From a virus (lineage: Duplodnaviria > Heunggongvirae > Uroviricota > Caudoviricetes), in IMG/VR virus record IMGVR_UViG_2585427753_000011: a DNA stretch of 23,703 nt. The stretch is one strand, 5' to 3'. The notes beneath the pieces were generated by a model. The model worked only from the letters and a program-made list of their open reading frames with translations, ran no database searches and was not told the DNA's origin. A program made the position numbers and the translations under genes. How positions within the stretch are numbered: the stretch's first letter is position 1; every line of letters begins with the position of its first letter. Positions 3,510-23,703 of the stretch are shown piece by piece.

Positions 3510-5778
3510 AGCCTCCGGGCGTTTTGTCCCTCCGTCAGCATTTGCCGCAGGCACCGGTAAGACGTTTACCGGTGCTTATGCATGGAACGCGCCACGCGAG
3601 GCCGTCGGGCGCGAAAGACCCCTTACACGTGACGAGATGCGTCAGGTGCAAGGTGTTTTATCCACGATTAACCGCCTGCCTTACTTTTTGCGTTCGCTGT
3701 TTACTTCACGCTATGACTACATCCGGCGCAATAAAAGCCCGGTGCACGGGTTTTATTTCCTCACATCCACTTTTCAGCGTCGTTTATGGCCGCGCATTGA
3801 GCGCGTGAATCAGCGCCATGAAATGAACACCGACGCGTCGTTACTGTTTCTGGCAGAGCGTGACCACTATGCGCGCCTGCCGGGAATGAATGACAAGGAG
3901 CTGAAAAAATTTGCCGCCCGTATCTCATCGCAGCTTTTCATGATGTATGAGGAACTCTGCGATGCCTGGGTGGATGCCCATGGCGAAAAAGAATCGCTGT
4001 TTACGGATGAGGCGCAGGCTCACCTGTATGGTCATGTTGCTGGCGCTGCACGTGCTTTCAATATTTCCCCGCTCTACTGGAAAAAATACCGTAAAGGACA
4101 GATGACCACGAGGCAGGCATATTCTGCCATTGCCCGCCTGTTTAACGATGAGTGGTGGACTCATCAGCTTAAAGGCCAGCGTATGCGCTGGCATGAGGCG
4201 TTACTGATTGCTGTCGGGGAGGTCAATAAAGACCGTTCTCCTTATGCCAGTAAACATGCCATTCGTGATGTGCGTGCACGCCGCCAGGCAAATCTGGAAT
4301 TTCTTAAATCGTGTGACCTTGAAAACAGGGAAACCGGCGAGCGCATCGACCTTATCAGTAAGGTGATGGGCAGTATTTCTAATCCTGAAATTCGCCGGAT
4401 GGAGCTGATGAACACCATTGCCGGTATTGAGCGTTACGCCGCAGCAGAGGGTGATGTGGGGATGTTTATCACGCTGACCGCGCCGTCAAAGTATCACCCG
4501 ACACGTCAGGTCGGAAAAGGCGAAAGTAAAACCGTCCAGCTAAATCACGGCTGGAACGATGAGGCATTTAATCCAAAGGATGCGCAGCGTTATCTCTGCC
4601 ATATCTGGAGCCTGATGCGCACGGCATTCAAGGATAATGATTTACAGGTCTACGGTTTGCGTGTCGTCGAGCCACACCACGACGGAACGCCGCACTGGCA
4701 TATGATGCTTTTTTGTAATCCACGCCAGCGTAACCAGATTATTGAAATCATGCGTCGCTATGCGCTCAAAGAGGATGGCGACGAAAGAGGAGCCGCGCGA
4801 AACCGTTTTCAGGCAAAACACCTTAACCGGGGCGGTGCTGCGGGATATATCGCGAAATACATCTCAAAAAACATCGACGGCTATGCACTGGATGGTCAGC
4901 TCGATAATGATACCGGTAGGCCGCTGAAAGACACAGCTGCGGCTGTTACCGCATGGGCGTCAACGTGGCGCATTCCGCAATTTAAAACGGTTGGTCTGCC
5001 GACAATGGGGGCTTACCGTGAACTACGCAAATTGCCTCGCGGCGTCAGCATTGCTGATGAGTTTGACGAGCGCGTCGAGGCTGCACGCGCCGCTGCAGAC
5101 AGTGGTGATTTTGCGTTGTATATCAGCGCGCAGGGCGGGGCAAATGTCCCGCGCGATTGTCAGACTGTCAGGGTCGCCCGTAGCCCGTCGGATGACGTTA
5201 ACGAGTACGAGGAAGAAGTCGAGAGAGTGGTCGGCATTTACGCGCCGCATCTCGGCGCGCGTCATATTCATATCACCAGAACGACGGACTGGCGCATTGT
5301 TCCGAAAGTGCCGGTCGTTGAGCCTTTGACTTTAAAAAGCGGCATCGCCGCGCCTCGGAGTCCTGTCAATAACTGTGGAAAGCTCACCGGTGGTGATACT
5401 TCGTTACCGGCTCCCACACCTTCTGAGCACGCCGCAGCAGTGCTTAATCTGGTTGATGACGGTGTTATTGAATGGAATGACCAGGAGGTCGTGAGGGCGC
5501 TCAGGGGCGCATTAAAACGAGGTCTGAGAAGACCAAACCGTCAGCAAAGAAACGGAAGCCCGTTAAAACAGCATGAAATGGCACCATCGGCCAGACTGAC
5601 CCGGTCAGAACGAATGCAAATTACCCGTATCCGCGTTGACCTTGCTCAGAACGGTATCAGGCCGCAGCGATGGGAGCTTGAGGCGCTGGCGCGTGGAGCA
5701 ATTGTAAATTACGACGGGAAAAAATTCACGTATCCAGTCGCTGATGAGTGGCGGGGATTCTCAGCAGTAATGGAGTGA
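3499..5778 (+). CDS. A: Replication initiation endonuclease A (rolling-circle HUH endonuclease)
   Basis: Track ORF 3457..5778; start set at ATG 3499 (MAVKASGRF...) by resemblance to the P2 gpA N-terminus and coupling to the upstream stop. Contains a histidine-rich HUH-type motif (HHDGTPHWHMMLF). Confidence 0.9.
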   Translation: MAVKASGRFVPPSAFAAGTGKTFTGAYAWNAPREAVGRERPLTRDEMRQVQGVLSTINRLPYFLRSLFTSRYDYIRRNKSPVHGFYFLTSTFQRRLWPRIERVNQRHEMNTDASLLFLAERDHYARLPGMNDKELKKFAARISSQLFMMYEELCDAWVDAHGEKESLFTDEAQAHLYGHVAGAARAFNISPLYWKKYRKGQMTTRQAYSAIARLFNDEWWTHQLKGQRMRWHEALLIAVGEVNKDRSPYASKHAIRDVRARRQANLEFLKSCDLENRETGERIDLISKVMGSISNPEIRRMELMNTIAGIERYAAAEGDVGMFITLTAPSKYHPTRQVGKGESKTVQLNHGWNDEAFNPKDAQRYLCHIWSLMRTAFKDNDLQVYGLRVVEPHHDGTPHWHMMLFCNPRQRNQIIEIMRRYALKEDGDERGAARNRFQAKHLNRGGAAGYIAKYISKNIDGYALDGQLDNDTGRPLKDTAAAVTAWASTWRIPQFKTVGLPTMGAYRELRKLPRGVSIADEFDERVEAARAAADSGDFALYISAQGGANVPRDCQTVRVARSPSDDVNEYEEEVERVVGIYAPHLGARHIHITRTTDWRIVPKVPVVEPLTLKSGIAAPRSPVNNCGKLTGGDTSLPAPTPSEHAAAVLNLVDDGVIEWNDQEVVRALRGALKRGLRRPNRQQRNGSPLKQHEMAPSARLTRSERMQITRIRVDLAQNGIRPQRWELEALARGAIVNYDGKKFTYPVADEWRGFSAVME

Positions 5779-6019
5779 ACGTCGCCCGTTGCGAAAATTA
5801 TTTACAGGGGGCAGCGTTAAGCATCTAAAGATCTTGTTCTATGATTAGAATGTTTCCTCGTTGCACTCTCGTATAGTTATTTAATGGGAAGATGTACTCT
5901 ATATGTTGTGTTTTGGTGATAAATGAAGCCAAAGGAAGGAGATTTTGCTTGATTGATGGGCGCTCTTTGCTATACACCTTGTATTGAGAAGGAGAAGTAA
6001 TCAAGGATTAAGCTGGCTT

Positions 6020-6073
6020 TTGTCAAAAATCTGAAAAGCTTTTTTGACTGAATACGATAGCGAGTTGTACTAT
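6020..6073 (+). promoter_or_regulatory. Candidate sigma70 promoter with overlapping inverted repeats upstream of the cargo membrane operon
   Basis: -35 TTGACT (6044-6049), 18-nt spacer, -10 TACTAT (6068-6073), ~35 nt upstream of ATG 6108. Inverted repeat GTCAAAAA (6022-6029) / TTTTTGAC (6041-6048) and palindrome AAAAGCTTTT (6034-6043) overlap the -35. Confidence 0.35.
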
Positions 6074-6107
6074 TTGCGCCCTCAAAAGTAACCGGCGGCT
6101 GGGTAAA

Positions 6108-6482
6108 ATGGGGAAGCAAGGCAAAGGCAAAGGCAACAAAAATCAGGTTAAGGTTACGTGGGCTCAGGCGTGGCGGGATGTAATGATAAGAGCCATGTCT
6201 AATGGTCAGTTGATACCTATTACCATCAGTATTATTTTAATGATTGCTGCATGGAGGTTACCAAAAACAGACTTGTCCAATTTAGCCTTCTCTATTGTTG
6301 ATGGCTTTAAGGAGCATTCCTTGGTTGGTTGGGCTATCTCGGTAATAGTGGGTTTGGCTTGGTCTGCACATGCGCGAATCATGAGGCGCTGTTTTAGTTC
6401 CGAGGCACAGAGAATCGGTAACGAGAAAACAAAGTATCAACAAAGACAGACCACTCAAGCCTTGGGTACAAGTGATAAATAG
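6108..6482 (+). CDS. Cargo gene 1: small two-transmembrane-helix protein with Lys/Gly-rich N-terminus
   Basis: 124-aa ORF; two hydrophobic segments (LIPITISIILMIAAW; LVGWAISVIVGLAWSAHA). Weak SD, so start is uncertain (alternative Met at 6183/6195). AT-rich relative to backbone. Confidence 0.6.
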   Translation: MGKQGKGKGNKNQVKVTWAQAWRDVMIRAMSNGQLIPITISIILMIAAWRLPKTDLSNLAFSIVDGFKEHSLVGWAISVIVGLAWSAHARIMRRCFSSEAQRIGNEKTKYQQRQTTQALGTSDK

Positions 6483-6502
6483 TTGTTTATTTAGGAGTTA
6501 TT

Positions 6503-7060
6503 ATGCTGACAGTGCTGTTTTATGTGCTGTTGGGTTTAGGCGCAGCACACTTCATTTACGAGCGAATCATTTTGCCGTCCATCCGACTTCATTATAGAAA
6601 CCAATTGTTTGCGCTTCGTGATGTCGCTAGGAGGAAAATCATTGATGGAGGTTCCGATACTTCCATGCAAGCGGCAACACTTGTGCATGACTCATTGAAT
6701 AACGCTATCAATAGATTGCATTTACTCACGTTGCCAAACAAATTTCGTGCTCAAAAGCGTATGGCAGAAAACCATGCAATAAGGCAGAAAATTCGGCGTG
6801 AGATAGATGTTTTCAAACGCTGTGATGATAGAGAAGTTGTTGATGTACTGTTTAAATCCGGTCGGATACTTGAAAATGTACTGTTATTCAATAGCTTAAT
6901 GTTATTGCTTTACATGTTTCCATTTGTCCTTGCTGTATGGTTCTGTGTTAGGGTCATAAAGACAGCAAGTAGTTTAGTACAGTGGGTCAAAGGAAGAGAT
7001 TTAGAGGAAGCTATAATGCTGCTTCCTGATACTCAGGTTGAAAAGGTTGTATACGCATAA
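6503..7060 (+). CDS. Cargo gene 2: membrane protein with N- and C-terminal hydrophobic helices
   Basis: 185-aa ORF with strong SD (AGGAG ~5 nt upstream); hydrophobic N-terminus (LTVLFYVLLGLGAAHFIY) and C-terminal segment (LLFNSLMLLLYMFPFVLAVWFCV) around a charged helical region; 20 nt after gene 1. Confidence 0.7.
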   Translation: MLTVLFYVLLGLGAAHFIYERIILPSIRLHYRNQLFALRDVARRKIIDGGSDTSMQAATLVHDSLNNAINRLHLLTLPNKFRAQKRMAENHAIRQKIRREIDVFKRCDDREVVDVLFKSGRILENVLLFNSLMLLLYMFPFVLAVWFCVRVIKTASSLVQWVKGRDLEEAIMLLPDTQVEKVVYA

Positions 7061-7088
7061 AAATCACCCCTTAGGGGGTGATTTTTTT
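7061..7088 (+). terminator. Rho-independent terminator ending the two-gene membrane operon
   Basis: Stem ATCACCCC (7063-7070) / GGGGTGAT (7075-7082), loop TTAG, followed by a T-run; immediately after the stop at 7060. Confidence 0.8.
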
Positions 7089-7299
7089 ACATGACTTTTG
7101 ATTAGCTGACATTGTAAATCCGCATGTATCAGATGCATTGTTTTGCATGTGGAAATGGGTGTTTTCACTGCCAGCTATCGCTACATGTAGCAAAAACACG
7201 GGCTTAATAAGAAATCATTCTGCCATAAGGCATAACTTCCCCGCGTGCTCAGGTATTGACGTCATAGATATGGATCTTTTTTAATCAAGGTATGGTATT

Positions 7300-8247
7300 A
7301 TGAAGATATTTATTAGTTGGTCAGGTCAGGACAGCCTGGAGATAGCAAAAGTATTACGGGATTGGATACCGAATGTTATTCAAGTAGCTGAGCCGTACGT
7401 ATCAGCGGAAGATATTGATAAAGGCACTCGCTGGGCGACTGATATATCAAAGGAACTTGATGACTCTTCTTATGGGATTATTTGCCTTACAAAAAATAAT
7501 ATTAATGCACCGTGGATAAATTTTGAGGCGGGTGCTTTAGGTAAAAAGGTTGATAAGAGCCGGGTTAGTCCTTTCTTGTTTAAAATTAAACCATCTGAGA
7601 TAACAGGCCCAATATTACAATTCCAGTATACTCGTTCGGATGATAAGAACGATATTTTGAAGTTGATGTTGTCAATAAATAATCAAGCAGGATTTTTGAC
7701 TGAAGAACGCTTAACTAAAGCTTTCGAGCAATGGTGGCCAAGTTTAGAGCGTGAGTTAGATAACATTCAAGATATTAACCCTGTAGATAAAGATTCCACT
7801 AAAAAAACAAAAGGTGATTCGACTTCTGAGATACAAAATCTTTCCAAAATTGTTGAAAGTTTGCTGGATATTAGCCGAACAAATCACCAATTATTGCGTG
7901 ATCCAGCATCATTATTGCCAGAAGAATATGTTAGCAAAATAATAAACAGGGAAGGGCGTAAAGAAACTGTTTTAAAAATTGTAGCTTCTGATTTATTATC
8001 CATGCATCATTCACTAATTCGTGTAAAAAGAAGATTTATTCGTCGTGGTATTGATGAAACATCTAGGAGCGAGTTAATTGAATCATTAAATAAAATGATA
8101 ATGGATTGTTCTAGAGTAATCGCTCACTTAGATAATTATTGTGGGGCTTCATCAAACAATATGTTCAATAGTGCGCTTAGATTGCGGACCAGAAATTTAA
8201 TTGACATGATGGATGAGGAGGATGCAGAACGGGATGAAATGGAATAA
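7300..8247 (+). CDS. Cargo gene 3: TIR-domain protein with uncharacterised C-terminal helical domain
   Basis: 315 aa. N-terminal ~130 aa has TIR hallmarks: KIFISWSGQDS first strand, GIICLT strand, and W-x-x-F-E-A-G motif (WINFEAGAL) aligning by eye with the catalytic-Glu region of bacterial TIR NADases. C-terminal ~170 aa has no motif I recognise. Own transcription unit. Confidence 0.75.
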   Translation: MKIFISWSGQDSLEIAKVLRDWIPNVIQVAEPYVSAEDIDKGTRWATDISKELDDSSYGIICLTKNNINAPWINFEAGALGKKVDKSRVSPFLFKIKPSEITGPILQFQYTRSDDKNDILKLMLSINNQAGFLTEERLTKAFEQWWPSLERELDNIQDINPVDKDSTKKTKGDSTSEIQNLSKIVESLLDISRTNHQLLRDPASLLPEEYVSKIINREGRKETVLKIVASDLLSMHHSLIRVKRRFIRRGIDETSRSELIESLNKMIMDCSRVIAHLDNYCGASSNNMFNSALRLRTRNLIDMMDEEDAERDEME

Positions 8248-8298
8248 TCAATTTTGACTAATCATAAATAATTTTGCATATATAAACTTATAATGCCG

Positions 8299-8321
8299 CA
8301 GCCGCTATTTTTCAGCGGCTG
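8299..8321 (+). other. Stem-loop downstream of the TIR gene (possible weak terminator or RNA structure)
   Basis: CAGCCGCT (8299-8306) / AGCGGCTG (8314-8321), 7-nt loop ATTTTTC; no U-tract after the stem. Confidence 0.3.
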
Positions 8322-8791
8322 TATATCGCTTATAATGGGTATGTTATTTTTATTTTGATAAAATCATTAAAATTGTCGATGTTATATGAATGCACATGTA
8401 TTATTAATGTTAGAAGATTATGCCTGCTTACGGCTATTGTGCTGAATTCAACTATGAACGCATCAGTATTAAAATCGTTCCATGAAATGTTCTTCGTCTA
8501 CAGCAGATGATGGGCAACGAAAAAATGACGCTGAGTGAGTTGGTCGGGGAGAATTGTTAGAGGTATTTATGGAGTGGTTTAATAATATCGGTCAATCCTG
8601 AGTTGCAGCATCACATAGACGATAGGGAATCTCTCCAGTCGTTCTGGAATGGCAGCGTTGAACAACAAGCACAGCGAGGCGTTAGATGCCCATCAGATTG
8701 ACACAGAGGGTTTATGAATCGCTGGGATTTACTTAGTTTGAAAAATAATATATTTATATGTTTTTGTATTGTGTTTGTTAAGGAGTTTGGA

Positions 8792-8998
8792 TTGAAAAGA
8801 AAACTGATTTGTGTTATGGCTTTTTGGGGGGCGTTGCTGGCTGGTTGTAATGAGAGTAATAAAAAAGAAGTTGAGGGTTGTATTGAAAGAGGTGTCCAAT
8901 ATTTTATAGAGATTGGTTCTTACCCTAAATTAAGTGATGGGCGTGATGCTGTAAAAGTTGCTACTGAACGTTGTAATAGAACAATAACGGCTTTCTGA
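8792..8998 (+). CDS. Cargo gene 4: small predicted lipoprotein (lipobox LLAGC)
   Basis: Track ORF 8714..8998 has an improbable N-terminus. An in-frame TTG at 8792 follows AGGAG (8781-8785, 6-nt spacer) and gives (M)KRKLICVMAFWGALLAG-C: a basic n-region, hydrophobic core and lipobox Cys. Mature protein ~49 aa. Confidence 0.6.
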   Translation: MKRKLICVMAFWGALLAGCNESNKKEVEGCIERGVQYFIEIGSYPKLSDGRDAVKVATERCNRTITAF

Positions 8999-9000
8999 TA

Positions 9001-9918
9001 ATGGATTATACGAGCTATATAATAGGACAGCTTCAGGTTGAGGATATTATTGATGCAATTAAAGGCGTTAATAATACTAATGTCATAAAAGATTATGTGC
9101 TGCCTGTAGTATTACCAATTATATCTTCTGTGCTGAGTTACTTTATTGCAACTAGGTTGTTTTATCGGCAGGAGGACCTTAAAGCACAAAGAAGAAAGGT
9201 AAGCGTTGTAAATAAATGTATTTATGACTACTTTTCTGCAATGACAACGTTGTTGCAAATTAAAGGGAATTATTATGGTGGGGTAAGTATAAGTGAAAAT
9301 CCTATCGAGAGGGCTTTAGCTTTTCCTGTTGTGGTTTTTTCTGGTGCTCCTCTATCATCAGATTTAAGTGAGTTGGCCTGTATATTGAGTCAAAAGGGAG
9401 TAGGGAATAATAGAGAGCCAGCAAAGACTACTAACTGGGGGGATGCTTTTGCTGTTAGTGATATAGCAAGAAGGTTTAACAGCCTATTGGCTGCATTAAA
9501 TGTTAGGAATGATTTTGATGACACCTATAGAGGAATGATTATTGAATCAACAGGTTCACCTTTGCCTACGATGCGTTTTAAAAATGATGATATTGTTAAT
9601 GCTATAGGTAGTAATAAGGCAGCTTATTACATTGATATTACTGAGCAAATAATGATTATGATAGATGTTTTGTTGCTTGATATTAATCTGTTGCTCAAAG
9701 AGTTGCCATTGTATGCTGAATCGCTGTTTGACAAAAGAGTAATGCAAGAAGATTCAGGGATTCTTAAATTCAATGATTTGCACGAACGTTTTCCTCTACT
9801 TATGAAACCTGTAACGCCACCTTCGATTAAACTCATGTCTGATTATTTGGGGTACAGTGAAGATGAGATCTTACGACGCTATCCATACCCGTTCTTTAAT
9901 ATGCATGATTGTGAATGA
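9001..9918 (+). CDS. Cargo gene 5: 305-aa protein with one N-terminal transmembrane helix, no recognisable domain
   Basis: Starts 2 nt after the lipoprotein stop (translational coupling). Hydrophobic segment VLPVVLPIISSVLSYFIATRLF near the N-terminus; AT-rich codon usage. Confidence 0.7.
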   Translation: MDYTSYIIGQLQVEDIIDAIKGVNNTNVIKDYVLPVVLPIISSVLSYFIATRLFYRQEDLKAQRRKVSVVNKCIYDYFSAMTTLLQIKGNYYGGVSISENPIERALAFPVVVFSGAPLSSDLSELACILSQKGVGNNREPAKTTNWGDAFAVSDIARRFNSLLAALNVRNDFDDTYRGMIIESTGSPLPTMRFKNDDIVNAIGSNKAAYYIDITEQIMIMIDVLLLDINLLLKELPLYAESLFDKRVMQEDSGILKFNDLHERFPLLMKPVTPPSIKLMSDYLGYSEDEILRRYPYPFFNMHDCE

Positions 9919-10021
9919 ATGTGCATATGTCAGAAGCCGTTTTTATTGTCAGTTATCGTCAGTGCTGGCGCGCTCTTGGAGTGTTCATGCAACTGCATTA
10001 AAACCGCCCCACGAAGCGGGC

Positions 10022-10040
10022 GGGCGAGGCGGGGAAAGCA
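10022..10040. other. Probable cos cohesive-end site
   Basis: GGCGAGGCGGGGAAAGCAC at 10022-10040 matches the P2 19-nt cohesive end as I recall it; in a GC-rich non-coding stretch just upstream of portal Q, where cos lies in P2. Confidence 0.6.
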
Positions 10041-10170
10041 CTGCGCGCTGGCGGTGGTGATGATTGTCTGAGCGCGTCGTGATGGCGTTTAGATTGTGCG
10101 CCGGGGCGTTGGTGTGTCTGCGGGGTGTTTTGTACAGTGGCGAGCGTGTGAGGGCGTGATGACGGGGGTG

Positions 10171-10198: not shown

Positions 10199-11233
10199 TC
10201 AGCCGTTGTCAGTGTCCAGTGAGTAGTTTTTAAAGCGGATGACCTCCTGACCGAGCCAGCCGTTTATTTCCCGAATCCTGTCCTGTAACGGGATAAGTTC
10301 ATTGCGGACAAAGACCTTTGCCACTTTCTCAATATCGCCCAGCGACCCGACGTTTTCCGGCTTGCCACCCATCAACTGAAAGGGGATGCGGTGCGCGTCC
10401 AGCAGGTCAGCGGCGCTGGCTTTTTTGATATTAAAAAAATCGTCCTTCGTGGCCACTTCACTGAGCGGGATAATTTTAATGCCGTCGGCTTTTCCCTGTG
10501 GGGCATAGAGAAACAGGTTTTTAAAGTTATTGCGGCCTTTCGACTTCACCATGTTTTCGCGGAGCATTTCGATATCGTTGCGATCCTGCACGGCATCAGT
10601 GACGTACATGATGTATCCGGCATGTGCGCCGTTTTCGTAATACTTGCGGCGGAACAGCGTGGCCGACTCATTCAGCCAGGCAGAGTTAAGGGCGCTGAGA
10701 TATTCCGGCAGACCGTACAGCTCCTGATTAATATCCGGCTCCAGCAGGTGAAACACGGAGCCGGGCGCGAAAGGTGTCGGCTCGTTGAAGGACGGCACCC
10801 ACCAGTAAACATCCTCCTCCACGCCACGGCGGGGATATTTTGCCGGGGAGGGTTCCAGTCTGATGACCTTACCGGTGGTGCTGTAACGCTTTTCCAGAAA
10901 CGCATTACCGAATACCAGAAAATCCAGCACAAAGCGGCTGAAATCCTGCTGAGAAAGCCACGGGTGTGGGATAAACGTTGAGGCCAGAATGTTACGTTTG
11001 ACGTAAATCGGTGAGCTGTGATGCACGGCAGCACGCAGGCTTTTTGCCAGACCGGTAAAGCTGACTGGTGGCTCATACCATCTGCCGTTACTGATGCACT
11101 CGACGTAATCCAGAATGTCACGGCGGTCGAGTACCGGCACCGGCTCACCAAAGGTGAATGCCTCCATTTTCGGGGCGCTGGCGGTCATTTTTTTTGCCGC
11201 AGGTTGCGGTGTTTTCCCTTTTTTCTTGCTCAT
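10199..11233 (-). CDS. Q: Portal protein Q
   Basis: 344 aa, same length as P2 gpQ and recognisable sequence (MSKKKGKTPQPAAKK...); adjacent to cos. Confidence 0.9.
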   Translation of the reverse strand: MSKKKGKTPQPAAKKMTASAPKMEAFTFGEPVPVLDRRDILDYVECISNGRWYEPPVSFTGLAKSLRAAVHHSSPIYVKRNILASTFIPHPWLSQQDFSRFVLDFLVFGNAFLEKRYSTTGKVIRLEPSPAKYPRRGVEEDVYWWVPSFNEPTPFAPGSVFHLLEPDINQELYGLPEYLSALNSAWLNESATLFRRKYYENGAHAGYIMYVTDAVQDRNDIEMLRENMVKSKGRNNFKNLFLYAPQGKADGIKIIPLSEVATKDDFFNIKKASAADLLDAHRIPFQLMGGKPENVGSLGDIEKVAKVFVRNELIPLQDRIREINGWLGQEVIRFKNYSLDTDNG

Positions 11234-11979
11234 CAGTAAAACTCCAGAATGGTGGATGTCAGCGGGGTGCTGATACCGGCGGTGAGTGGCTCATTTAACA
11301 GGGCGTGCATGGTCGCCCAGGCGAGGTCGGCGTGGCTGGCTTCCTCGCTACGGCTGGCCTCATAGGTGGCGCTGCGTCCGCTGCTGGTCATGGTCTTGCG
11401 GATAGCCATGAACGAGCTGGTGATGTCGGTGGCGCTGCGTCCGCTGCTGGTCATGGTCTTGCGGATAGCCATGAACGAGCTGGTGATGTCGGTGGCGCTG
11501 CGTCCGCTGCTGGTCATGGTCTTGCGGATAGCCATGAACGAGCTGGTGATGTCGGTGGCGCTGCGTCCGCTGCTGGTCATGGTCTTGCGGATAGCCATGA
11601 ACGAGCTGGTGATGTCGGTGGCGCTGCGTCCGCTGCTGGTCATGGTCTTGCGGATAGCCATGAACGAGCTGGTGATGTCGGTGGCGCTGACGTCATATTC
11701 CAGACAGCCACGGCGGATGACGTCTTTTGCCTTGAGCACCATTGCGGTTTTCATTTCCGGCGTGTAGCGGATATCGCGTGCGGCGGGATAGAACGAGCGC
11801 ACGAGCTGGAACACGCCGACACCGAGGCCGGTGGCATCAATTCCGATGTATTCGACGTTGTATTTTTCGGTGAGTTTGCGGATGGATTCCGCCTGAGTGG
11901 CAAAGTCCATGCCTTTCCACTGGTGACGCTCAAGTATTCTGAATTTACCTCCGGCCACCACCGGCGGTGCCAGCACCAC
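11233..11979 (-). pseudogene. P: Terminase large subunit P, C-terminal remnant with internal tandem-repeat expansion
   Basis: 248-aa frame that opens at GTG with no upstream gene context. Reads as the C-terminal part of P2 terminase ATPase/nuclease, plus four extra 21-aa repeat copies. N-terminal ~400 aa absent; upstream sequence runs straight into endolysin K. Confidence 0.8.
11368..11682. repeat. Perfect 63-bp tandem repeat, 5 copies, in-frame within the terminase remnant
   Basis: GGCGCTGCGT recurs at 11368, 11431, 11494, 11557, 11620, then partially at 11683; on the minus strand this encodes SATDITSSFMAIRKTMTSSGR x5. Copies are identical by eye. Confidence 0.9.
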
Positions 11980-11995
11980 GCATCCGGCGCTGGCC

Positions 11996-14383: not shown

Positions 14384-15169
14384 TTATGAGTGATTTTTAT
14401 TTGATGCTTTGTATTCTAAAACCTTCTTATTGGCGTAAAAGAATTTTGTATATGACAGGAATATAACCAGACCTGAAGTGAAATAGACGAGGGATAGTAT
14501 TAATAATGCTTTTTTGCGACTGTTATTATCTTTAATCTCCAGGCTTAACCATTCGGAGTCCTCCTCGTTTAGCTGTAAGAGCTTATTGCAGGCGATTTCA
14601 GGAAGTGTGTCTTTTATAAATACGTTTTGCAGTCTCTTGCAATCGGCAAGGCTATAAGTTTTATTAAATTCAACTGCTTTATTTTTGAAGGATAAAAGAA
14701 CTTTGTCACTATAAACATAGTACATCATGTTTTTATATGGTATGCCTATGGCATCCCTTACTATAACGGATTGTTCGTTGTGTATGTAACATGCGAGGAG
14801 AATGTAAAAAATACTGGCCAGAATTACAATTATTGTTTTAATTATGTGTGGTGGTTTTGTTATGTCACCCCAGATGCGAGTAAGGAAAAAATACGATGTT
14901 TTTAGTTTTCCATCAATCAGTCCCTGCTGTATCATTCTCACATTTTCAATGCCTGATACATTGATTCCGTTAATTATTTTAAATAGTTGAATGTCGCGCC
15001 ACTCGCGGTCAAGTCTTTTTAATTTTTTGTCTGAATATCCAAAATTGAAATAATGTGCAATAAGCCTCATAAGGTTACTTTTACCAAAGCTAAAAAATGC
15101 TAATACTGCAAAGCTACAAAGGAAAAAAACGATTAGCCCCCACACATTAGTCACATTATAGCTGACCAT
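14384..15169 (-). CDS. AT-rich moron at the P2 orf30 position: membrane protein with ~3 TM helices, unknown function
   Basis: 261-aa ORF antisense to the late operons between S and V; hydrophobic segments near aa 9-28, 111-131 and 228-247; Lys/Asn/Ile/Phe-rich. Confidence 0.7.
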   Translation of the reverse strand: MVSYNVTNVWGLIVFFLCSFAVLAFFSFGKSNLMRLIAHYFNFGYSDKKLKRLDREWRDIQLFKIINGINVSGIENVRMIQQGLIDGKLKTSYFFLTRIWGDITKPPHIIKTIIVILASIFYILLACYIHNEQSVIVRDAIGIPYKNMMYYVYSDKVLLSFKNKAVEFNKTYSLADCKRLQNVFIKDTLPEIACNKLLQLNEEDSEWLSLEIKDNNSRKKALLILSLVYFTSGLVIFLSYTKFFYANKKVLEYKASNKNHS

Positions 15170-20476: not shown

Positions 20477-21070
20477 ATGTTTACTAAGCGACGATTAAAA
20501 AATATTAACTGGGAGGCAAGTTCAGTGATTCTTGCTATGGTTCTCTTTGTTGGAAATATATTTTATACAAATCATCGTGATGATATAAGCATGGAGGCTG
20601 AGAGGGACAGTATCAGAACAATGTTTGCATATGAAATCGCTAATAACCATCGCGCTCTCACTTTTCTTGATAAAACGAGACATATTGGCTTTGACGAAAA
20701 TTCGGAGCATTTTGTTGGCGAGCCTTTTGCCATTAATGTCAAATCATTAGGGGGACCTCGCTTACAGATTGCATTAAACCAGACTGATAAAGTGTTTAAA
20801 TCCTACTTCGGCGAATTAAGTAAGCTTGATAAAGAGGATGTTACTCTTCTTATGGACTATTACCATGAGCAAAGCATCCTGCTGGAGCGTGTAAAATCTA
20901 CGTTACAGAAGATGAAAAGTGGTAATGATATTAAAGTTGATATTGATGGTTGCTTATTAGAAGAACACTTCATGAATGAGCTTAATCTTTCTAATATTTT
21001 GCTTAAACGCTATAGCTATTTATTATCACAACACGCTAAGGAACATAAAACAAAAGATTTACATAATTGA
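20477..21070 (+). CDS. AT-rich moron at the P2 Z/fun position: 197-aa protein with one N-terminal TM helix, unknown function
   Basis: ORF between G and the FI remnant, where P2 carries Z/fun; AT-rich flanks; hydrophobic segment SSVILAMVLFVGNIFY near the N-terminus. Confidence 0.65.
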   Translation: MFTKRRLKNINWEASSVILAMVLFVGNIFYTNHRDDISMEAERDSIRTMFAYEIANNHRALTFLDKTRHIGFDENSEHFVGEPFAINVKSLGGPRLQIALNQTDKVFKSYFGELSKLDKEDVTLLMDYYHEQSILLERVKSTLQKMKSGNDIKVDIDGCLLEEHFMNELNLSNILLKRYSYLLSQHAKEHKTKDLHN

Positions 21071-21399: not shown

Positions 21400-21513
21400 A
21401 TGAGTGACTATCATCACGGCGTGCAGGTGCTGGAGATTAACGACGGCACCCGCGTCATTTCCACCGTATCCACAGCCATTGTCGGCATGGTCTGCACGGC
21501 TAGCCTCCCGTAA
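21400..21513 (+). pseudogene. FI: Tail sheath FI, N-terminal fragment (~35 codons) ending at a deletion junction
   Basis: ATG 21400 with GGAG SD encodes [35 protein letters not shown], which I recognise as the P2 sheath N-terminus; frame then hits TAA at 21511-21513. Confidence 0.75.
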
Positions 21514-22719: not shown

Positions 22720-22800
22720 ATCCTCAATTTGCCTGCTGCTTAATGCATTGCAGATGATTTGCTTCCGTTATACTACCGTCAGTTGATAGCGGGAGTATTT

Positions 22801-23703
22801 ATGAATCAATCTTATGGACGGCTGGTCAGTCGGGCGGCGATTGCTGCGACGGCGATGGCTTCGCTGCTATTGCTGATTAAAATTTTTGCATGGTGGTATA
22901 CCGGGTCGGTGAGTATTCTCGCCGCGCTGGTGGATTCGCTGGTGGATATCGGCGCGTCGTTGACGAATTTACTGGTGGTGCGATATTCCCTGCAACCTGC
23001 CGACGATAATCACTCGTTTGGTCACGGTAAAGCTGAGTCCCTCGCGGCGCTGGCGCAAAGTATGTTTATCTCCGGTTCGGCACTATTCCTGTTTTTGACG
23101 GGTATTCAACATCTGGTATCTCCAACACCGATGACAGATCCAGGCGTCGGGGTTATCGTGACAATTGTGGCGCTAATTTGTACGATTATCCTTGTCTCGT
23201 TTCAGCGTTGGGTGGTGCGCCGGACGCAAAGCCAGGCGGTGCGGGCTGATATGCTACATTACCAGTCTGATGTTATGATGAACGGCGCAATTCTGCTGGC
23301 GCTGGGGTTGTCCTGGTACGGCTGGCATCGCGCCGATGCTCTGTTTGCATTGGGGATCGGCATCTATATTTTATATAGCGCGTTACGCATGGGATATGAG
23401 GCGGTACAGTCATTACTGGATCGCGCATTGCCTGATGAGGAACGGCAAGAAATTATTGATATCGTGACTTCCTGGCCGGGTGTTAGCGGCGCTCACGATC
23501 TTCGCACGCGGCAGTCAGGGCCGACCCGCTTTATTCAGATTCATTTGGAAATGGAAGACTCTCTGCCTTTGGTTCAGGCACATATGGTGGCGGATCAGGT
23601 AGAGCAGGCTATTTTACGGCGTTTTCCGGGATCGGATGTGATTATCCATCAGGACCCCTGTTCCGTCGTACCCAGGGAGGGTAAACGGTCTATGCTTTCA
23701 TAA
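22801..23703 (+). CDS. fieF: Host cation-diffusion-facilitator iron/zinc efflux transporter FieF (YiiP)
   Basis: Track ORF 22759..23703; start at ATG 22801 gives 300 aa [25 protein letters not shown]..., which I recognise as E. coli-type FieF; six-TM N-terminal domain plus cytoplasmic C-terminal domain. Confidence 0.9.

Follow-up and report, generated by a model that had tools for sequence, protein, structure and literature searches.

The 23,703-nucleotide (nt) stretch of viral DNA analysed here (IMG/VR record IMGVR_UViG_2585427753_000011, referred to as the window at its full length) contains a P2-like prophage in which the 4.2-kb interval between the replication gene A and the cohesive-end site (cos) is occupied by five open reading frames (ORFs), all on the + strand. 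This interval is very probably a cargo island of the type found in the peduovirus P2_AC1, inserted in the GpA-GpQ hotspot and organized as a stack of three self-contained units to which roles can be proposed: a pair of membrane proteins (ORF1 and ORF2, unit A), a TIR domain protein (ORF3, unit B) and a lipoprotein followed by a 305-amino acid (aa) membrane protein (ORF4 and ORF5, unit C). The island is already known, an anti-phage effect has been demonstrated by experiment for three of its five genes, and it is in effect the type locus of the 2TM+1TM+TIR defence system. The residual novelty is modest and lies in the orphan ORF4/ORF5 pair and in the question of how the system is to be defined.

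Positions 5600-10022 of the window show 99.6% nucleotide identity to the terminal part of Escherichia phage P2_AC1 (NC_070903 / OV192280). It was in this phage that the 2TM+1TM+TIR system was found by Rousset et al. (2022; PMC9122126). In that study, an AC1 lysogen was resistant to lambda and LF82_P8, and the cloned genes (pFD240) reproduced the resistance of the lysogen in E. coli C and also blocked P2 (PMC9122126). The pFD240 primers given in Table S2A of Rousset et al. (2022) map to 5843-5868 (forward) and 8609-8633 (reverse). The match of the insert was checked; it corresponds to window 5843-8633 and the three proteins of Table S2A are ORF1, ORF2 and ORF3. ORF1 is identical to the first cloned protein save one Gly-Lys unit, ORF2 is 100% identical to its AC1 counterpart and ORF3 differs from the third cloned protein by one residue. 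Because the pFD240 insert ends at 8633, ORF4 and ORF5 are outside the validated clone. The five proteins are listed as a set in Table S5 of the same study (WP_024261709, WP_001534953, WP_023140578, WP_023140580 and WP_023140581; PMC9122126). Four of these five accessions agree with the RefSeq annotation of an identical island in strain 0-4, and WP_023140580 and WP_023140581 are ORF4 and ORF5. Among 5426 complete E. coli genomes, 14 contain the entire island, with an identity of at least 98.8%. A literature search on the name of the system returned surveys only. Since the island, its position and the activity of the three genes were published in 2022, the island is a re-discovery and not a new kind of system.

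The GpA-GpQ interval is the main defence hotspot of P2. Genes associated with defence, belonging to known systems in full or in part, are present in 81% of P2 elements and in many cases are located in this hotspot (PMC13586616). P2 itself has old-tin-orf91 in the A-to-cos slot (Rousset et al. 2022, Table S2A, PMC9122126). The original prediction, made from the sequence, had proposed the interval as a strong candidate for defence cargo, and this is borne out for ORF1 to ORF3, which are the published 2TM+1TM+TIR genes and are contained in the protective clone. In profile searches with the five proteins, ORF1 to ORF3 are identified as defence genes by PADLOC, with full-length matches to its models 2TM-TIR (PDLC02978, E 2.2e-58), 1TM-TIR (PDLC02977, E 2.7e-75) and TIR-TM (PDLC03016, E 2.3e-118), and no named family was found for ORF4 and ORF5. 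This PADLOC trio is taken by us to be equivalent to Rst_2TM_1TM_TIR of DefenseFinder.

The description of the island given in the original prediction is accurate in every respect that could be checked. The ORF list and the composition agree with five AT-rich ORFs between the stop codon of gene A and cos. The contrast claimed with a GC-richer backbone is equally apparent: the island has a GC content of 37.9%, compared with 53% for genes A and Q and 48.3% for the entire window, and the GC content at third codon positions is 0.23-0.46 in the island genes versus 0.55-0.64 in genes A and Q. The spacing of the genes, the terminator that follows ORF2 and the hairpin that follows ORF3 support three apparent transcription units. 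Similarly, hydropathy, the Pfam domain TIR_2 and the lipobox of ORF4 agree with the proposed protein types (two membrane proteins, a TIR protein, and a lipoprotein with a 305-aa membrane protein), and none of the five proteins has a Pfam or PADLOC match to the Tin or Old families. The island is bounded by a single occurrence in the window of GGCGAGGCGGGGAAAGCAC, the P2 cohesive-end sequence. The linear genome record of P2_AC1 terminates at window position 10022, which is exactly the cos cut. The features of the island and of the remainder of the prophage are collected in Table 1.

Table 1. Positions of the island features, its flanks and other prophage features in the window
Feature	Position	Strand	Description
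Gene A	stop 5778		Pfam Phage_GPA, E 1.6e-124
Unit A non-coding leader	5779-6107	+	homology to other 2TM+1TM carriers begins ~5900
Promoter-like site	6044-6073		TTGACT-18-TACTAT; consensus match only
ORF1	6108-6482	+	124-aa small membrane protein (2TM in Rousset et al.); Lys/Gly-rich N-terminus
ORF2	6503-7060	+	185-aa membrane protein (1TM in Rousset et al.)
Intrinsic terminator at the end of unit A	7059-7088	+	12-bp stem, 4-nt loop, seven-U run
ORF3	7300-8247	+	315 aa; N-terminal TIR domain, ~residues 1-130
Putative catalytic Glu76 of ORF3	7525-7527 (codon)
GC-rich hairpin after TIR gene	8298-8322	+	no U-tract; -17.3 kcal/mol, z = -3.3
AT-rich non-coding spacer	8326-8641		316 bp, without convincing ORF; between the TIR hairpin and the start of homology to lipoprotein-pair carriers
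Region upstream of ORF4	8642-8791	+	moves together with ORF4/ORF5; similarity to the MS 16-3 prophage begins at 8642
ORF4	8714-8998 as listed (94 aa); 8792-8998 with TTG start (68 aa)	+
ORF5	9001-9918	+	305-aa single-pass membrane protein
ORF5-to-cos spacer	9919-10022		from ~9946, backbone common to other P2-like phages
cos	10023-10041	+	cohesive-end sequence
Portal gene Q	10199-11233	-	Phage_portal
63-bp tandem repeat	11365-11694		5.2 copies, 99% matches; in frame in terminase large-subunit remnant; five copies of a 21-aa peptide; single copy in AC1
Deletion 1 relative to AC1	11989-11992 (AC1 31632->26316)		loses holin gene, head genes and ~420 N-terminal terminase codons
261-aa ORF	14384-15169	-	AT-rich (~35% GC), hydrophobic segments; on the opposite strand within tail/baseplate genes; AC1 gp28; no Pfam or PADLOC match
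197-aa ORF	20477-21070	+	AT-rich, N-terminal hydrophobic segment; Z/fun-type cargo position, flanked by tail fibre and sheath genes; corresponds to AC1 gp21; no Pfam or PADLOC match
Deletion 2 relative to AC1	21501-21504 (AC1 16801->11366)		loses sheath, tube and tape-measure region

The comparison of related phages shows that the island genes travel as blocks, the three units occurring apart from each other. Unit A (~5900-7148) recurs in the P2-like contigs L026 and L027, with a protein identity of 84-86%; there it adjoins the cos-proximal backbone directly and has no TIR gene beside it; its neighbours are a 226-aa protein and a WapI-like immunity protein in one contig and DUF3850 in the other. 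A homologue of unit B (the TIR gene, from 7277) is the sole gene between A and cos in the contig L021, at 74% identity, and another, at 60% identity, is located between the tail sheath and tail fibre genes of a different myovirus contig (L022, 6001-6936). Neither contig has the membrane genes next to its TIR homologue. In addition, the TIR subfamily occurs without ORF1 or ORF2 homologues in 79 of 80 metagenome loci, the exception being an AC1-type locus; many of these contigs are short, and 40 of them have at least 1.5 kb upstream. Co-occurrence of the three genes across relatives is hence not obligate, the pair being found without the TIR gene and the TIR gene without the pair.

ORF2 is separated from ORF3 by a terminator with a predicted energy of -17.8 kcal/mol (z = -5.1), and none of 200 shuffled sequences was as stable. 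Because the pair and the TIR gene occur apart elsewhere and a strong terminator lies between them here, the published three-gene system may consist of two adjacent units that were cloned together. The island thus differs from the published definition of 2TM+1TM+TIR, which treats the three genes as one system and ignores ORF4 and ORF5, in that the comparative data suggest two separable units.

The alternative is that ORF1 to ORF3 form one system, as Rousset et al. proposed, in which a nucleotide signal made by the TIR protein would activate or open the two membrane proteins and kill the cell, the separate occurrences being remnants or re-used modules. Its chance of being correct is substantial, if somewhat short of even. 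The three genes are adjacent on one strand, they were cloned and were active together, PADLOC models them as one system, and Thoeris-type systems, which combine a TIR protein with an effector, are established. A single system is less easily reconciled with the canonical terminator between ORF2 and ORF3, with the membrane pair next to unrelated neighbours and no TIR gene in L026 and L027, or with TIR homologues that stand alone in L021, L022 and 79 of the 80 metagenome loci; nor was a nucleotide-binding domain recognised in ORF1 or ORF2 by a Pfam scan. The question has a practical side: tools for defence annotation may be working with a definition that joins two separable units into one, which would affect both the counts of loci and the picture of a TIR protein signalling to membrane effectors.

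In unit A, ORF1 and ORF2 are separated by 20 nt and belong to phrog_33772 and phrog_24550, respectively. Hydropathy places hydrophobic segments of ORF2 at residues 1-20 and ~122-156, and a scan of genome contigs with ORF2 found no relative. The two proteins could either be membrane-disrupting effectors or form a separate exclusion unit, as the comparative data suggest. The Gly-Lys difference between ORF1 and AC1 corresponds to a GGCAAA repeat (6120-6131), which has two copies in the window and three in AC1 and may be a slippage-prone tract.

In unit B, the TIR domain of ORF3 is recognised by Pfam (TIR_2, residues 3-113, 40.5 bits against a cut-off of 28, E 4.7e-10) and is followed by a helical region of ~185 aa without transmembrane segment. 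The motif PWINFE, which includes Glu76, aligns with DWTNYE of the nicotinamide adenine dinucleotide (NAD+) hydrolase AbTIR, in a weak alignment (E 0.13-0.5). This Glu is catalytic in AbTIR, and Glu76 is invariant in three homologues of ORF3. In the mechanism that we propose, the C-terminal helical region would sense infection and the TIR domain would then cleave NAD+ by means of Glu76, leading either to depletion or to a signal derived from ADP-ribose; the outcome would be aborted infection. A more distant relative of ORF3, with 41% identity over the TIR domain, is encoded by the lambdoid phage mEp390 (NC_019721, 33766-34218). The hairpin downstream of ORF3 is a possible weak terminator. A promoter-like sequence, TTTTCA-16-TATAAT (8309-8336), overlaps this hairpin.

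In unit C, the start codon of ORF4 is more probably the TTG at 8792, judging from the AAGGAG located upstream at 8780-8785; the homologue in strain MS 16-3 is annotated in RefSeq with the same length of 68 aa. The protein begins with the signal peptide MKRKLICVMAFWGALLAG, directly followed by Cys19 (lipobox LLAG-C, Cys19 codon from 8846). Its n-region is basic, its core is hydrophobic and the lipobox has the form L-x-[GAS]-C, so that lipidation is predicted. The motif L-L-x-G-C is invariant in five homologues of ORF4. The mature protein would be ~50 aa long and has two further invariant cysteines (C30 and C61) and a conserved C-terminus (ERCNRTxTAF). ORF4 belongs to phrog_32041 (E 9.5e-38), and no match was found in Pfam, NCBIfam, PADLOC or the sequences of the Protein Data Bank (PDB).

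From its N-terminus onwards, ORF5 has a short acidic helix, a transmembrane segment (~33-55) and an all-helical C-terminal domain of ~250 aa. The net charge is negative before the membrane segment, which is followed by RQEDLKAQRRK; the large domain is thus predicted to be cytoplasmic and the first 30 residues periplasmic. An AF2 model of the protein is an all-helical compact bundle with a predicted local distance difference test score (pLDDT) of 88.7 and a predicted template modelling score (pTM) of 0.81; an earlier model, built from a three-sequence alignment, had reached a pLDDT of 55 and its Foldseek matches were noise. Word-indexed searches yielded just two clusters of homologues for ORF5 and five for ORF4. 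An exhaustive profile search with ORF5 returned 201 representatives of clusters formed at 50% identity (E <= 1e-3), nearly all of 270-320 aa and matched over their full length. Conserved polar positions are K88, Y91, R104, N160, R169, E215 and D222. Neither ORF5 nor 75 of its relatives matched a Pfam or PADLOC family, and ORF5 itself also had no match in NCBIfam. No specific fold relative of ORF5 was found among PDB and BFVD folds, and a profile search of PDB sequences gave nothing meaningful. ORF5 is hence a member of an unnamed family without known fold relative.

The ORF4/ORF5 pair was found at 53-99% protein identity in six further P2-like hotspot contexts (L002, L004, L005, L014, L018 and L019). 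Five of these contexts contain an exact copy of cos, and in each of the five the pair stops ~100 bp short of it. The pair is the sole A-to-cos cargo in L005 (E. coli CP058063), L014 (ETEC1730) and L019 (an IMG/VR contig), and it is accompanied by DUF3850 and other genes in L002 (strain MS 16-3). The two genes are read as an operon; the gap between them is 2 nt in the window and 34 nt in a divergent allele. In all, 19 of the 5426 E. coli genomes contain the pair. One of the six contexts also carries cargo on the other side of cos, and another appears to do so. In MS 16-3, an extra 333-aa gene without family lies between cos and Q (L002, 4279-5544) and marks a second site of insertion, located on the Q-proximal side of cos. 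The other case is a 433-aa gene of the Logan contig L004 (1808-3109), which has weak MauJ and DzbB-like matches and lies between the lipoprotein pair and the portal gene. Homology to the cos region of the window stops just before this gene, and the contig yielded no exact match to cos; the gene appears to occupy the same Q-side insertion point as in L002.

Distant relatives of ORF5 (~23-25% identity) are located in variable regions and have as neighbours a type I restriction-modification specificity gene, RES and HipA toxins, Imm49, an AAA_23/ResIII pair and integrases, and one of them is a singleton amid housekeeping genes. These neighbourhoods are circumstantial evidence that fits a role in conflict or defence. 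A lipoprotein partner was considered for these relatives and rejected, as an ORF4-type lipoprotein is absent there; likewise, no other conserved partner was found. Three unrelated lipoprotein genes follow one distant relative (P0162; L012, 7220-8794); this arrangement could be accidental, or it could point to a repeated association of the ORF5 family with lipoproteins.

We infer a defence role for ORF4 and ORF5 from their position only. Most likely, the two genes would be translationally coupled and would form an envelope-located superinfection-exclusion or abortive-infection module. In such a module, ORF4 would encounter the short N-terminal stretch of ORF5 in the periplasm, and the helical domain of ORF5 would exert its action, or signal, from the cytoplasm. 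The pair is well delimited, is located in the prime defence slot of P2-like phages and is tied to an unnamed family present in diverse bacteria; if active, it would add a new envelope-associated family to the known defence repertoire.

The main alternative for unit C is that it has no anti-phage function and serves lysogenic conversion or fitness by altering the envelope, for example as a Bor-like surface lipoprotein or in stress or adhesion. This is unlikely, although far from negligible. Cytolethal distending toxin genes occupy the same hotspot in other P2-like prophages, the defence phenotype of the lysogen was reproduced by a clone without ORF4 and ORF5, and neither protein matches a defence model. 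Against such a role stand the defence-associated genes carried by 81% of P2 elements, many in this very hotspot (PMC13586616), the occurrence of the pair as sole occupant of the old/tin slot of P2 in some phages, and the clustering of distant ORF5 relatives with restriction-modification, toxin-antitoxin and integrase genes.

A small lipoprotein encoded next to a single-pass membrane protein also resembles an o-spanin/i-spanin pair, which would make ORF4 and ORF5 a lysis module composed of an outer-membrane lipoprotein and an inner-membrane partner. This resemblance is hardly credible as an explanation, in view of the Rz-like spanins already annotated in the AC1 lysis cassette, of the compact helical bundle of ORF5, whose charges predict a cytoplasmic location and which has no periplasmic coiled coil, of the wrong gene order, of the location at cos, outside the lysis cassette, and of the absence of the pair from most P2-like phages (it is present in 19 of the 5426 genomes).

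Finally, the co-occurrence of all five genes in AC1 and in 14 of the 5426 complete E. coli genomes could be read as the mark of one five-component system. However, each unit is found without the others and the clone without ORF4 and ORF5 is active, which makes this very improbable. Moreover, across the island the 14 copies have an identity of 98.8% or more and hence represent one recent lineage rather than independent co-occurrence.

Several points weigh against the interpretation of the island as three self-contained units with the roles proposed above. Since the three-gene clone recapitulated the phenotype of the AC1 lysogen, unit C added nothing visible against the panel of eight phages (PMC9122126), and the A-to-cos hotspot also houses non-defence cargo, cdtABC, in other P2-like prophages. 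Searches of PADLOC, of protein families and of folds revealed no similarity of unit C to known exclusion or defence proteins. Asp at position +2 is the inner-membrane retention signal of E. coli lipoproteins; ORF4 has Asn at +2 in the window allele versus Asp in the divergent allele, which leaves its membrane location uncertain. The topology of ORF5 follows from the positive-inside rule, with the charge distribution as its sole basis. A promoter scan showed no enrichment over shuffled sequence (17 sites, 14.4 expected). Lastly, effector and sensor modules are often re-used, and separability is no proof of two systems. A bolder form of the interpretation holds that the island combines three independent envelope- or NAD-based anti-phage units, 2TM+1TM+TIR being two systems and ORF4+ORF5 a new two-component defence or superinfection-exclusion system that founds the unnamed family. 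It is tentative and, taken as a whole, doubtful.

Compared with known systems, the island is closest to 2TM+1TM+TIR of P2_AC1, with which it agrees in the three proteins (apart from 0-2 residue differences and one Gly-Lys unit), in the adjoining DNA, in location and in orientation; the window prophage differs from AC1 by two large deletions, without material difference in ORF1 to ORF3. Thoeris (ThsB and ThsA) and the bacterial TIR proteins that act in defence as single genes (Wang et al. 2024, PMC11350192) have in common with the island a TIR domain, in ORF3 with a putative counterpart of the conserved Glu, phage defence and a probable NAD+ chemistry. However, the C-terminal helical region of ORF3 is unrelated to these proteins, the island membrane proteins have no known signal-binding domain, neither Pfam nor PADLOC revealed a ThsA partner (SIR2/SLOG or Macro) among the five island proteins, and PADLOC gave no match to Thoeris. 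The island is not Thoeris because it has no ThsA.

The old, tin and orf91 genes of P2 occupy the same cos-adjacent slot, are likewise AT-rich and moron-like, and exclude other phages. Old, Tin and Orf91, as given in Table S2A (PMC9122126), are distinct in sequence from the island proteins. There is no relation in sequence or domains, as the island is devoid of the OLD ATPase/TOPRIM, of Tin and of DUF3850/ASCH. Small lipoproteins are known to mediate superinfection exclusion by prophages, such as Llp of T5, Cor of phi80 and HK022 and Ltp of TP-J34, and in function ORF4 and ORF5 would come closest to these. ORF4 is similarly a very small prophage-encoded lipoprotein with conserved cysteines in a cargo slot, but it has no detectable sequence similarity to these proteins, which are devoid of the 305-aa inner-membrane partner that strictly accompanies ORF4.

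Outside the island, the prophage has undergone two deletions relative to AC1, both of ~5.3-5.4 kb, and carries a tandem repeat in the remnant of the terminase gene (Table 1). The prophage therefore looks defective, and probably is so. All five island ORFs are intact despite these deletions. Additional AT-rich genes are found among the tail genes. The 261-aa ORF on the opposite strand is probably another cargo gene, and the 197-aa ORF lies at a position of the Z/fun type. Homology to AC1 stops at window position 22722 and is followed by an ORF (22759-23703) that looks, by eye, like the host cation-efflux gene fieF; the region around 22722 is hence taken as the junction between prophage and host.

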